This document shows positions 4,991 to 40,253 of a DNA stretch of 64,000 nt, in pieces. Made by a program: the position numbers and the translations under genes. Every line of letters starts with the position of its first letter. Position 1 is the first letter of the stretch. This DNA is from Candidatus Woesearchaeota archaeon (GTDB taxonomy: Archaea > Nanobdellota > Nanobdellia > Pacearchaeales > GW2011-AR1), in the NCBI GenBank assembly GCA_964410025.1, contig CAYPFA010000001.1, forward strand, positions 223,401 through 287,400. The letters are read 5' to 3'. The notes below the pieces were generated by a model that made no database searches, was not told the DNA's origin, and saw nothing but the letters and a program-made list of their open reading frames with translations.

Positions 4991-5004
4991 GCCCACATCG
5001 CATA
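4991..5004 (+). repeat. 14-nt copy of the 5' end of tRNA-Ser, followed by a small hairpin
   Basis: gcccacatcgcata at 4991-5004 is identical to tRNA positions 5045-5058. It then diverges into gcata-atgtCCGttcgCGG-tatgc. Confidence 0.6.
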
Positions 5005-5044
5005 ATGTCCGTTCGCGGTATGCTCTGTGAGTATAACAACAAAT

Positions 5045-14678: not shown

Positions 14679-15989
14679 ATGCCATATGATGTGATAGTCG
14701 GAAGAAATGAGAGTGATAAGAAAGCATTCGGAAAAAAGGGTTTAATTTTTCTTGGAAAGAGTTATGTAACCATGGGTCAATATACTTCACTTTCTAATCC
14801 TGTTTATATGGACGTAGCACGAAGCCACGTCATAATGATTGCCGGAAAAAGAGGCTCTGGTAAATCCTACACTCTTGGCGGAATGGCCGAAGCAATTTCA
14901 GATTTAAATTTTGAAGAAGCGCAAAATGTTTCCTCACTAATTTTTGACACCATGGGAATTTTCTGGACCATGAAATTCAAAAATCACAAAGACAAAGCAT
15001 TACTATTCGAATGGGGCTTAGAAGAAAAAAATATTCCCGTTCGTGTCTATGTTCCCTTTGGTTATTACAATCAATTTAGAGATAAGGGAATACCCATTGA
15101 TGGAGAATTCGCAATAAAACTTTCCGACCTAGAAGCCGACGACTGGATTTCTCTATTTGGACTAAAATTTACACAACCCGAAGGAGTTCTAATTGAAACA
15201 ATCGTATCCAGATTAAAAGAAAAAGGAAATTTTAGTTTTGAGGACATTAGGAATCTTGCAAGACAATCCGAAGAAGTTTCTCAAGATATTAAAAATGCTG
15301 TCATCTCACTTTTCAACGCTGCCGAAACATGGAAATTATTTGACGAAAAAATAGGAACACCTATAAAAGAACTTATTGTTGGCGGGAAAACCACAGTTAT
15401 AGATCTTTCAATGTACGCATCATCTGGAAGTTTCAATGTTAGAGGATTGGTAATTGGTTTGGTGTGTAAAAAATTATTTAATGAAAGAATGTCTGAAAGA
15501 AGAAATGAAGAAATTCAAGCCGTTCAAAGAGGCTACGATATGCAAAGTTTTTCAGTAAAAAGAGAAATGCCACTAGTTTGGATTTTCATTGATGAAGCCC
15601 ATGAATTTCTACCAAGAACCGAAGATGGGAAAACCCCGGCAACCGACGCGCTAATACAACTACTAAGAGAAGGTAGACAGCCAGGAATTTCTTTAGTTTT
15701 AGCAACCCAACAGCCTGGAAAAATTCATACTGATGCCATGACTCAATCCGATATTGTTTTATCTCACAGAGTTACGGCTGAACAAGATGTTAATGCCTTA
15801 AACTCTATCATGCAAACATATCTATACGAAGGCATCAAGGAAAAAATGAATAATCTGCCACACCTAAAAGGTTCCGCAATCTTACTTGACGACAATTCTG
15901 AAAGAATTTATCCAATAAGAGTTAGACCTAGATTTACATGGCACGGAGGCGATGCGCCTAGTGCTGTAAGAGAAGAAAAAATAGAATAA
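14679..15989 (+). CDS. HerA/FtsK-like (DUF87-type) P-loop ATPase
   Basis: Walker A AGKRGSGKSY, Walker B WIFIDEAHEFLP, then LATQQPGKI and SHRV. No NurA partner seen nearby. Confidence 0.7.
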   Translation: MPYDVIVGRNESDKKAFGKKGLIFLGKSYVTMGQYTSLSNPVYMDVARSHVIMIAGKRGSGKSYTLGGMAEAISDLNFEEAQNVSSLIFDTMGIFWTMKFKNHKDKALLFEWGLEEKNIPVRVYVPFGYYNQFRDKGIPIDGEFAIKLSDLEADDWISLFGLKFTQPEGVLIETIVSRLKEKGNFSFEDIRNLARQSEEVSQDIKNAVISLFNAAETWKLFDEKIGTPIKELIVGGKTTVIDLSMYASSGSFNVRGLVIGLVCKKLFNERMSERRNEEIQAVQRGYDMQSFSVKREMPLVWIFIDEAHEFLPRTEDGKTPATDALIQLLREGRQPGISLVLATQQPGKIHTDAMTQSDIVLSHRVTAEQDVNALNSIMQTYLYEGIKEKMNNLPHLKGSAILLDDNSERIYPIRVRPRFTWHGGDAPSAVREEKIE

Positions 15990-16124
15990 AATATCGCCGG
16001 AGTGCCTGGCACGGTGAGCAATTCGCTTTTGCCTTGAAAATTTTAAAATTCAAAACCGCAAATGCAAATTGCGAATAAGAGATGCGCCTAGTGCTGTAAG
16101 AGAAGAAAAAATAGAATAAAATAT
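15951..16124. repeat. Perfect 44-bp direct repeat (15951-15994 and 16081-16124) flanking an 86-bp insert
   Basis: gatgcgcctagtgctgtaagagaagaaaaaatagaataaaatat occurs twice. The first copy is the last 13 codons, the stop and 5 nt after it of the HerA-like gene. Confidence 0.9.
16015..16077. mobile_element. Small hairpin-forming insert, copy 1 of a two-copy family (MITE-like; mobility not proven)
   Basis: Left end tgagcaattcgcttttgc and right end cgcaaatgcaaattgcgaata are identical to 24959-24976 and 25009-25029. The ends are imperfect inverted repeats (ATTCGCtTTTGC / rc ATTCGCaaTTTGC). Confidence 0.5.
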
Positions 16125-16747: not shown

Positions 16748-16822
16748 GGCCTCGTAGCTCAGCCTGGTTAGAGTACCAGACTCTTAATCTGGGTGTCAGG
16801 GGTTCAAATCCCCTCGAGGTCA
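16748..16822 (+). tRNA. tRNA-Lys (anticodon CUU)
   Basis: Acceptor GGCCTCG/CGAGGTC plus discriminator A; D arm GCTCagcctggttaGAGT; anticodon stem CCAGA/TCTGG with loop CTCTTAA; T arm AGGGGttcaaatCCCCT. Confidence 0.9.
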
Positions 16823-16891
16823 TTTAGCTCTAATTGGGCAACAGCGAAATTAGATTTAATGGTTTCTAGTGATTTAAAGTCTATACGAAAA

Positions 16892-16986
16892 TCAGGGGTT
16901 AAAATTTTTGCTTTTTATAACAACTTGCGAAGCAACTAAAACAAAAATCCGAAAAGTGAAAATTTTACAAAATCCCCTCGAGGTCA
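16892..16986 (+). pseudogene. Second, interrupted copy of the tRNA-Lys(CUU) 3' portion
   Basis: tcaggggtt (16892-16900) and aaatcccctcgaggtca (16970-16986) match tRNA positions 16796-16804 and 16806-16822. They are separated by a 69-nt AT-rich insert containing the hairpin TTGCgaaGCAA. Confidence 0.7.
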
Positions 16987-17092
16987 TAAATTTATTGAAT
17001 GAAGTGAAATAAATATCGTTACTTCTAGTAATTTAAAGTCTATATAAAAATTAAAAATAAGACCAACAAATATTATAAAAACAGCTATCTAA

Positions 17093-17380
17093 TTATCCTT
17101 CAACAATTCTTTTTATAGAATCAATATGTTCTGCGATTTCAAGTCCTCTCTTTGTTAATTTGATGATTTTTATTCTTCCTTTCTTTTCAAAAACAACCAA
17201 TCCTAACTCTTCAAGTATCTGTAAAATCTTAACAGCATGAGAATATGTACAATCTACCTCTTTCGCAAGAACAGAACCATATTTTGCCTTATTAACTCTC
17301 TTTAAAGCAAGGAGCATCATTGCCGGTTTCCTTCTAAAAAACAAATCGAAGTTCGCGTGTATGTTTGGTATGTCTGCCAT
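17093..17380 (-). CDS. Small winged-helix DNA-binding protein (ArsR/MarR-like)
   Basis: 95 aa. YGSVLAKEVDCTYSHAVKILQILEELGLVVFEKKGRIKIIKLTKRG is a typical wHTH. Confidence 0.55.
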   Translation of the reverse strand: MADIPNIHANFDLFFRRKPAMMLLALKRVNKAKYGSVLAKEVDCTYSHAVKILQILEELGLVVFEKKGRIKIIKLTKRGLEIAEHIDSIKRIVEG

Positions 17381-24873: not shown

Positions 24874-24950
24874 TTTTTTGCAGATTGAATAAAATGAAAT
24901 CTGCAATTAAGATTTCTCTACTGTATACTTGTTAAAATATCAATTTTCAT

Positions 24951-25042
24951 TTCGAATCTGAGCAATTCGCTTTTGCATAAAAATTGCATCAGCACAAAAA
25001 TAAAAAATCGCAAATGCAAATTGCGAATATGGAGGGGCTATT
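24951..25042 (+). pseudogene. Second, interrupted copy of the tRNA-Gln 3' portion
   Basis: ttcgaatc (24951-24958) and tggaggggctatt (25030-25042) match tRNA positions 24854-24861 and 24863-24875. They are separated by the 71-nt insert. Confidence 0.7.
24959..25029. mobile_element. Small hairpin-forming insert, copy 2 of the family seen at 16015-16077
   Basis: Same 18-nt left end and 21-nt right end as copy 1, with a different AT-rich centre. Confidence 0.5.
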
Positions 25043-40087: not shown

Positions 40088-40155
40088 AATATACGAATGA
40101 CCTCGAGGAAAAAATTTCGCTTTCGATAACATTTTTACGAAGCAACAAACCCCTC
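40088..40155 (-). pseudogene. Second, interrupted copy of the tRNA-Lys(UUU) 3' portion
   Basis: On the minus strand, gaggggtt (40155-40148) and cctcgaggtcattcgtatatt (40108-40088) match the tRNA T arm, acceptor end and trailer. They are separated by a 39-nt insert with the hairpin GCTTCG...CGAAAGC. Confidence 0.65.
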
Positions 40156-40253
40156 GTTCTTCACGAATACAAAATTTTTTGTGGACTTGACGCCTCAACA
40201 GAGGTGATCCCTTTGGGAAACCCCTTGGGGTGAAAATCCAAAAATATACGAAA

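Follow-up and report, generated by a model that had tools for sequence, protein, structure and literature searches.

A genus-restricted hairpin repeat and duplicated tRNA gene ends at the tRNA-Lys(CUU) locus of a Woesearchaeota archaeon

Behind the tRNA-Lys(CUU) gene of a Candidatus Woesearchaeota archaeon lies a second, defective copy of the end of that gene, split by a short hairpin repeat that we call H. The locus belongs to a stretch of 64 kb (hereafter, the window), which corresponds to G000:C1:223401-287400, G000 being an 830-kb genome of six contigs with 33% G+C (bare coordinates refer to the window, those preceded by a contig name to that contig). H is a conserved hairpin repeat restricted to one genus, with a patchy copy number, a per-strand orientation, empty orthologous sites and a genome-level co-occurrence with tRNA-end duplications, and the tRNA-Lys(CUU) locus is one more member of this hairpin-element system rather than a unique event. 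As to its origin, we give about an even chance to the reading that H is a non-autonomous mobile element whose arrival and the duplication of the gene end form one replication- or repair-linked process. The sequence-only reading of this DNA had proposed either the targeting of T-loop/3'-end sequence by a small insert or the regeneration of gene ends; both are supported by our results, and they occur together instead of being alternatives.

The intact tRNA-Lys(CUU) gene occupies positions 16748-16822 on the plus strand (detected by ARAGORN, and by the Rfam model RF00005 with 67.1 bits), without an encoded CCA, and the source of the duplicated pieces is its T arm and 3' end (16796-16822). All the features that follow are read on the same strand. 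Behind the gene come a trailer hairpin, T1 (16829-16854; stem TCTAATT / AATTAGA, loop GGGCAACAGCGA, fold z = -2.3), and the first copy of a 29-nt block, R (16864-16892), within the tandemly duplicated unit. The second copy of the tRNA end then starts with a left piece, X' (TCAGGGGTT, 16892-16900), a 9-nt copy of the T-stem 5' strand that repeats positions 16796-16804 at 9/9 nucleotides. It is interrupted at the junction between the T-stem 5' strand and the T loop by the 69-nt H insert (16901-16969), and resumes with Y' (AAATCCCCTCGAGGTCAT, 16970-16987), in which the remaining T loop, the T-stem 3' strand, the acceptor 3' strand and the discriminator are 18/18 identical to positions 16806-16823. 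A second trailer hairpin, T2 (16990-17014; stem ATTTATT / AATAAAT, loop GAATGAAGTGA), and a second copy of the 29-nt block, R' (17023-17051; 26/29 identical to R), close the module. The two trailer hairpins have a related loop (ATTG...GAAAT) on different stems, one standing behind each tRNA-end copy, and the gap between the gene and its copy is 69 nt. The insert itself is AT-rich, has AAAATTTT... ends and the apex TTGCGAAGCAACTA, holds cTTGC-gaa-GCAAc, and has inverted A/T-rich ends of 15 nt. The layout read from the letters alone (a split second copy, a 69-nt insert with TTGC-gaa-GCAA and a duplicated trailer) thus proved correct to the base.

No open reading frame of at least 50 codons was found in 16823-17092, and the next gene after the module encodes a winged-helix (wHTH) regulator (17093-17380, minus strand). 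In Rfam 15, searched at gathering and at permissive thresholds, the tRNA was the sole match, the other hits being far under threshold. The R block is specific to the locus, with no further occurrence in G000 or in the retrieved loci, and is therefore a component of the local tandem duplication; a dispersed promoter element, which was considered for it, is ruled out by this confinement. Two further candidates were discarded: a C/D-box guide, since neither strand has C or D boxes, and a retroelement-like primer-binding site (complement of the tRNA 3' end), since the copy is same-sense and lacks CCA.

The insert owes its status as an element to family membership and not to thermodynamics. Its folding energy is no better than that of shuffled sequences (z = +0.2 as DNA), and that of the other H copies is not, or only weakly, better; this weak signal is attributable to the AT-richness of the sequences, and energy was not used as evidence. 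A profile built from eight inserts retrieved 27 copies in G000 at E < 0.01, and the covariance model R1 retrieved 30, plus about seven copies of a subtype, type A. H can thus be described as a non-coding sequence of approximately 60-75 nt with conserved inverted ends, present in approximately 30-37 copies in G000. Type B, the main subtype, has the ends YGAGC...GCGAR; type A, with approximately seven copies, has the ends AAAAAATTT...AAATTTTTT and is found at Lys-CUU, Lys-UUU, Leu-CAA, Leu-UAA, Ile-UAU and two other sites. Both share the core TTCGCTnTTG...TTGCGAAGCAACTA...CAAATGCAAA, and the tRNA-Lys(CUU) insert matches the type-A profile (nhmmer) with E = 8.5e-6 on the plus strand versus 0.42 on the minus strand. 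Aligned to each other, the inserts are homologous and form one hairpin family, as expected if a small insert recurrently targets such sites. Of the 12 base pairs predicted from the alignment, nine show compensatory changes on both sides; the outer pair is C-G in 13 copies, T-A in 10 and broken in none, and it flanks an invariant tandem G.A/A.G, a C.A mismatch being conserved as well. Only a folded single strand can show these features, in which the two strands differ; this argues that a folded single strand, of either DNA or RNA, is recognized.

The same layout recurs elsewhere in the window, where the sequence-only reading had already placed an insert-split self-copy at each of three other genes, and our analysis bears this out. 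At the end of the HerA-like gene, a 44-nt perfect repeat (15951-15994 and 16081-16124, plus strand) encloses a GTGCC-T-GGCAC fold-back, an 8-nt target piece (TGGCACGG) and a type-B H (~16015-16078). The split copy of tRNA-Gln(CUG) (24951-25040, plus strand) consists of TTCGAATC (24951-24958), a type-B H (24959-25029) and TGGAGGGGCTA (25030-25040). That of tRNA-Lys(UUU) (40097-40189, minus strand) consists of TCAAgTCC, a type-A H (~40109-40181) and CCTCGAGGTCAT (40108-40097); this tRNA is on the minus strand, yet the apex motif of its H reads on the plus strand.

Duplicated gene ends are moreover common to most tRNA genes of this genome. All tRNAs were scanned for exact copies of their own termini that were 10 nt or longer and no more than 400 nt away, and in G000 such a copy was found on the expected side of 24/30 tRNAs and on the wrong side of 0/30, a difference that excludes chance. 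The genome-wide recurrence of the pattern is as the sequence-only reading, which took the locus for one of several such cases, would have it. The 3' end is copied downstream at 17 tRNAs and the 5' end upstream at nine, tRNA ends being prominent among the direct repeats of G000 that are not of low complexity (at least 13 nt, within 400 nt). The copies lie 70-160 nt from the gene and are accompanied by neither cargo nor integrase remnant. Some tRNA-end copies are unsplit and also start inside the T arm (e.g. Thr-GGU and Ser-CGA). Exact tandem units are found at Val-UAC (53 nt, twice), Leu-AAG (137 nt, twice) and Ile-GAU (90 nt), and also at Leu-UAA, indicating that the number of units is still changing. 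Two arrays could be read only incompletely, as the modules next to tRNA-Val(GAC) (C1:332400-332640) and tRNA-Leu(UAA) (C2:94560-94660) contain runs of N.

At the nine tRNAs with a 5'-end copy, the first 12-18 nt of the gene are copied 50-75 nt upstream, and behind each copy stands its own imperfect reverse complement, so that the pieces read sense / antisense / sense, here without H. Examples are Val-UAC (C1:51697-51806), whose 53-nt upstream unit is exactly doubled, Ser-GGA (window 4991-5043) and Ser-GCU (C3:149411-149468), in addition to six others.

The junctions between H and the duplicated sequence follow a rule. The left target piece, measured from the start of the copy to H, is 7-9 nt long in 15/21 distinct H-split 3' copies, with a mode of 8 (8 nt in 10 cases, 7 nt in three and 9 nt in two, the other lengths noted being 10, 13, 5, 5, 3 and 1 nt). 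This holds for either orientation of H, for the 5' and the 3' boundary of the T loop, and for the HerA-like gene (8 nt). H is flanked by X' on one side and by the next target bases (Y') on the other, X' not being repeated after H, and the insertion point has lost zero to three bases of the target. An inverted copy of the left piece often lies directly outside it and forms a tight fold-back, as in GGATTTGAAC/GTTCAAATC at Pro, GTGCC-T-GGCAC at the HerA-like gene and CCCGAC-a-GTCGGG in the metagenome locus L163. Such fold-backs (perfect stem of 5 bp or more with a loop no longer than 4 nt) abut 15/55 H copies versus 1.8% of random positions, i.e. a 15-fold enrichment. That this piece usually measures 7-9 nt and often has its inverted copy in front of it suggests that the duplication and the hairpin are mechanistically linked. 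The left flanks of H vary (...AATC, ...GG, ...GAC, ...TTT).

The direction of H is uniform along a contig, regardless of the strand of the adjacent tRNA. In G000, plus and minus copies number 11 and 2 on C1, 8 and 0 on C2, and 5 and 0 on C3; in the congeneric genome G005, they number 18 and 1 on C5, and 2 and 15 on C3. Over these five contigs, each with at least five copies, 57/62 copies match the majority of their contig. Plus-strand H copies are thus found at minus-strand tRNAs on C1-C3 of G000 (Cys twice, Leu-AAG twice, Phe and Ile-UAU), and in G005, as read from coordinates, 12 copies are sense and nine antisense to the nearest tRNA. A part of a tRNA transcript would follow the strand of the tRNA, whereas H does not, which argues against an RNA part and for a strand-asymmetric element acting at the DNA level. 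Such a pattern is consistent with a process that acts on DNA and is bound to one strand of the chromosome. GC skew is negative on C1 and on most of C2, where the majority of genes are on the minus strand; replication direction is an obvious candidate cause of the bias.

H is accompanied by a second small family, which we refer to as T hairpins, to which T2 belongs with its canonical loop and T1 as a variant. Their stems vary and their loop is conserved (TTGAAyrAArtGAAAT, with possible tandem G.A pairs). Plus-strand tRNAs of a contig have them 2-8 nt behind their 3' end, and again behind each copy; T hairpins were observed behind no other tRNAs. The sites in G000 are C1:170131, 170424 and 248286, C2:94382 and 94544, C3:104289, 104438 and 104677, and window 16990-17014 and 24886-24900. 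The H-rich genomes G000 and G005 were the only ones to show T hairpins (six and four cases), with none in either G006 or G002. The order T hairpin, small hairpin, X', H, Y' recurs from module to module.

Among the relatives of the archaeon, H has a narrow and uneven distribution. When the R1 model was run against 41 related genomes, 42 copies were retrieved in G005, 30 in G000, 24 in G003, eight in G001, four in G007, one in G004, and none in G002 and G006; outside the genus of the window, no match was obtained except weak partial hits in one genome (G018). Exact-pattern matches to the family were found in metagenome-assembled genomes (MAGs) labelled Nanoarchaeota and Woesearchaeota. Self-end copies follow the same contrast: they are present at 24/30 tRNAs in G000 and 17/25 (sampled) in G005, versus 1/29 in G006 and 1/18 in G002, the wrong-side controls giving none in G000 and G005 and 1/29 in G006; the four genomes being kin, this contrast between H-rich and H-free genomes is no statistical proof. 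The near-absence of end copies in H-free congeners nevertheless speaks against a clade-wide background of old integrase scars. In G006, seven contigs (C6, C27, C36, C38, C39, C1 and C13) end at or within approximately 400 nt of a tRNA gene; tRNA flanks thus seem to be assembly break points, and variable sequence may have been lost from that MAG.

The orthologous loci provide the comparison with relatives by which a simple one-off tandem duplication, the option that the sequence-only reading had set against its own, could be recognized, and they are either empty or differently filled. A tRNA-Lys(CUU) gene followed by the wHTH gene is common to G000, G006 and G003: in G006 the two are approximately 80 nt apart without any module, and in G003 they are separated by a different module of 255 nt that includes H (G003:C8:297-366). 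On metagenome contigs encoding the same regulator, tRNA-Lys(CUU) adjoins it at 28 loci, many of them empty. Five metagenome loci (L146, L148, L163, L169, which has two units, and L193) show the same anatomy, namely GTCGGGG(GT), then H, then (G)TTCAAATCCCC..., with GTCGGGG as the left target piece; their H sequences differ, indicating that the same tRNA has been hit repeatedly in different lineages. The number of copies per locus ranges from 0 to 4.

The neighbourhood of this gene has itself been rearranged. tRNA-Lys(CUU) stands beside the wHTH gene in many relatives, in either orientation (window 16748-17380; loci L013-L032 and L132-L209): the two genes are convergent in G000, G003 and G006, and the arrangement is inverted in G001, G002, G004, G005, G007 and many metagenome contigs, which suggests that the tRNA gene underwent repeated small inversions. 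In the closest strain found, L131 (Ga0247841_10000536), the regulator protein is 99% identical and no tRNA-Lys lies beside its gene; compared with window 17051-17100, synteny there is lost only a few tens of bases from the distal end of the module.

Copies of H are also found away from gene ends, without duplication. Some lie in sense orientation between GGAGG, a Shine-Dalgarno-like motif, and ATG (G000 C4:73609-73688; L039, L041, L051 and L063), where the folding of H in the mRNA would bring GGAGG and ATG together. In addition, an intergenic region without tRNA (G000 C2:157380-157760) is a mosaic of a full H, an orphan H 3' end sharing its 9-nt flank (together a 25-nt repeat at a distance of 139 nt), an A-rich block that is also repeated, and additional small hairpins.

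We then consider which enzyme or parent element could be responsible. A search for Y1_Tnp gave none in G000, G001, G003 and G007 and one in G005. The latter, an IS200-type Y1 transposase gene (G005:C1:18407-18835, i.e. L066 6407-6835; 95 bits), lies in the congener with the most H copies, its neighbours at 2.5 kb being a tyrosine recombinase and a tRNA at the end of the contig; its own hairpins are both preceded by GGATACCTC and unrelated to H, and R1 gave nothing significant there. G000 has three recombinase genes, none near the tRNA-Lys(CUU) locus, and the integrase gene at C3:137233 adjoins tRNA-Asp at 138236. One tyrosine-recombinase family occurs in all the congeners and is therefore not correlated with H. 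No autonomous parent with matching ends and a transposase was seen in G000, in the relatives searched (incomplete MAGs) or in IMG/VR, whose viral contigs yielded no H with two patterns; a half-site pattern search for a long parent with H-like ends was noisy and returned nothing convincing. A classical integrase-borne integrative element at tRNA-Lys(CUU) is accordingly not supported.

H sits where stem and loop meet in small GC-rich hairpins of gene ends, chiefly in the T arm of tRNAs, and the local duplications with which it co-occurs leave the gene intact on its own side. If H is a mobile element arriving together with the duplication, it would land at these junctions, and the product that persists at an essential gene would consist of an intact gene-proximal end, a short spacer of small hairpins and a dead, H-split copy. 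At tRNA-Lys(CUU), a unit of approximately 96 nt (T arm, 3' end, trailer hairpin and 29-nt block) has been duplicated in tandem, with H in the distal copy. Two versions of such a process may be envisaged. In one, the nascent strand would pass the palindrome, dissociate approximately 8 nt beyond it (about one polymerase footprint) and switch template, with a brief snap-back followed by re-priming further back, as in tandem-inversion duplications and fork stalling and template switching (FoSTeS). In the other, a nuclease would break the DNA 7-9 nt from the foot of the hairpin, and the end would be repaired from, or joined on, the sister copy. Selection would keep only the products that retain an intact gene. 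Both versions fit the 7-9-nt rule and the fold-backs. A more specific form of this reading, which we put forward only as a tentative and rather doubtful proposal, is that H is a single-strand hairpin element whose insertion is coupled to a templated, one-sided tandem duplication starting approximately 8 nt from the hairpin foot, so that the gene that is hit regenerates its own end ('self-healing'), the whole taking place on one replication strand through host replication/repair enzymes or an unseen nuclease.

Several observations weigh against a mobile element with coupled duplication. No transposase was found although one was sought: G000 has neither a Y1/HUH enzyme nor a Cas1/casposase, the genus has no TnpB, and the sole IS200-type TnpA, that of G005, has unrelated hairpins. 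All eight genomes of the genus, the H-free G006 and G002 among them, have the tyrosine-recombinase family of G000:C3:141-1286. H lacks a classical target-site duplication on both of its sides, and the unsplit copies that start in the T arm (e.g. at Thr-GGU) imply that the 7-9-nt rule could partly reflect T-arm geometry. With H inside a single-copy tRNA gene, the intermediate would kill the cell, save under polyploidy or if the events are concerted. The genomes compared are MAGs, 52-88% complete, whose absences are weak evidence, and they contain no near-identical pair of strains differing only by the insert, the relatives being approximately 75% identical and the closest strain showing a synteny break.

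Two other scenarios may be set against this reading. It is conceivable, though unlikely in our view, that two unrelated processes succeeded each other: integrase elements would leave attR-type copies of tRNA ends, starting in the T arm, and an unrelated MITE (a miniature transposable element with inverted repeats) seeking T loops would later land in these dispensable copies, hits in the real genes being purged. In archaea, kb-scale integrative elements are well known to leave partial tRNA copies behind (PMC9897764). Elements with an integrase are indeed present at tRNA genes in G000, the unsplit copies of Thr-GGU and Ser-CGA do start in the T arm, and selection alone would account for the intact copy always being on the gene side. 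However, congeners that possess the tested integrase family without H show end copies at only 1/29 and 1/18 of their tRNAs, the copies lie only 70-160 nt from the gene and come with neither cargo nor integrase remnant, the left piece is 7-9 nt long in 15/21 cases, protein gene included, and its fold-back copy is enriched 15-fold. Somewhat less probable still is a scenario without any transposition, in which tRNA genes, rich in hairpins and strongly transcribed, are prone to replication or repair errors (fork stalling followed by a template switch, snap-back synthesis, tandem-inversion duplication, flap ligation), H being a templated filler from other H loci and the machinery being altered in the affected lineages. 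This would agree with the sense / antisense / sense junctions, be they the inverted copy followed by X' next to H or the 5'-end copies upstream of nine tRNAs, with the recent duplication implied by the exact tandem units (Val-UAC, Leu-AAG and Ile-GAU), with the per-strand orientation bias and with the failure to find a transposase. Yet the ends of H, conserved family-wide, and its non-Watson-Crick features look like a protein recognition site, H also occurs without duplication at sites other than gene ends, and its copy number varies from 0 to 42 among congeners, as in transposon bursts.

Explanations at the RNA level fare less well. A functional RNA module, comprising T hairpin, small hairpin, H and end copy and transcribed with or after the tRNA, might bind an L7Ae-type protein, serve as a 3'-processing or termination signal, or act as an acceptor/T-arm decoy. 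We hold it to be improbable: compensatory changes in the stems, tandem G.A pairs typical of K-turn-like RNA, the recurring order of the parts and the 18/18 identity of Y' amid diverged neighbouring sequence would all suit it, but H follows the contig strand (it is antisense at Cys, Leu-AAG, Phe, Ile-UAU and 9/21 sites of G005), is missing from whole congeneric genomes, varies from 0 to 4 copies per locus and has no Rfam match, and the tRNA-Lys(CUU) copy folds no better than shuffles. Archaea, including the DPANN lineages, possess tRNA introns at non-canonical positions and split tRNAs. The second copy could in principle be a remnant of such a gene (with a bulge-helix-bulge intron in the T loop, or as a trans 3' half), as the position of the insert exactly at the T-loop boundary would allow; this is highly improbable, and largely refuted, as the 5' part is missing, the tRNA set is intact and the orientation of H varies. 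Indeed, the copy lacks tRNA positions 1-48 and has only positions ~50-76; all 34 tRNAs found with the Rfam model are contiguous or carry anticodon-loop introns, none being solely H-split, and at this locus the tRNA models detect the intact gene alone; these introns look, by eye, unrelated to H; and H occurs in either orientation, as well as at protein-gene ends and intergenic sites.

The system can be set beside several known ones. Like the attachment-site (att) scars of archaeal elements (SSV-type and pNOB8-type integrases; PYG1 of Pyrococcus yayanosii; PMC9897764), it shows a direct repeat of the 3' part of a tRNA with an intact gene kept and a dead displaced copy, uses tRNA genes as hot spots and builds arrays by accretion. 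It differs from these scars in that no gene lies within the 70-160 nt separating the repeats, a hairpin splits the distal copy, 24/30 tRNAs are affected, and congeners with the same integrase family lack the pattern. H also resembles MITEs, the repetitive extragenic palindromes and bacterial interspersed mosaic elements (REP/BIME, or REPINs), and the Correia and Rickettsia palindromic elements: these are short non-coding hairpins in tens of copies, patchy among close relatives, situated at gene ends and in mosaics with other motifs, and tolerated inside or beside genes. REPs are mobilised in trans by RAYT. Unlike such elements, H has no short two-sided target-site duplication and no RAYT or transposase that we could find, targets T-arm junctions of tRNAs, is associated with a long one-sided duplication that regenerates the gene end, and resides in a DPANN host.

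With the IS200/IS605 elements and their palindrome-associated derivatives (PATEs), which are moved by the Y1 HUH transposase TnpA through 'peel and paste', H shares imperfect hairpins in one DNA strand, the lack of terminal target duplications and an orientation bias tied to a chromosome strand (the lagging-strand template for IS608). It lacks, however, a conserved tetra- or pentanucleotide in its left flank, no TnpA was found in G000, G001, G003 and G007, and the IS200/IS605 elements, unlike H, do not duplicate their target. Like the attC sites of integrons and the elements that exploit Xer, H conserves structure over sequence, has unpaired or mismatched bases that mark the strand, and forms cassette-like arrays; in contrast to integrons, there is neither IntI nor attI, the ends are YGAGC...GCGAR and not RYYYAAC/GTTRRRY, and the units lack open reading frames and repeat the target piece each time. 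Further parallels are palindrome-initiated rearrangements, such as the tandem inversion duplications of the Salmonella lac system (snap-back at quasi-palindromes), FoSTeS and microhomology-mediated break-induced replication (MMBIR), and flap ligation in FEN1 mutants, which likewise produce sense / antisense / sense junctions and hairpin-bounded duplications of tens to approximately 190 nt, in a strand-asymmetric manner, with selection fixing the useful product. These are, however, sporadic under laboratory selection and not lineage-wide with one conserved hairpin family. Our literature search returned no description of the H family, but only kb-scale att fragments and general papers on MITEs and REPs; the family is thus apparently undescribed.

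H would then represent a type of small palindromic mobile repeat with an unusual link to the regeneration of gene ends. Such modules create tRNA-like fragments, as well as contig breaks at tRNA genes, in DPANN MAGs, and they seem to be rearrangement hot spots, tRNA-Lys being inverted in many relatives and synteny being broken in the closest strain. If insertion and duplication are truly coupled, selfish DNA could enter essential single-copy genes without killing its host, by a route distinct both from that of integrases, which carry a replacement gene end, and from that of transposons making short duplications. The system would also be a natural one in which to study palindromes as triggers of template switching or breakage during archaeal replication. 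Should the 'self-healing' form of this reading hold, a parasite could in this way colonise the essential single-copy tRNA genes of a minimal genome.

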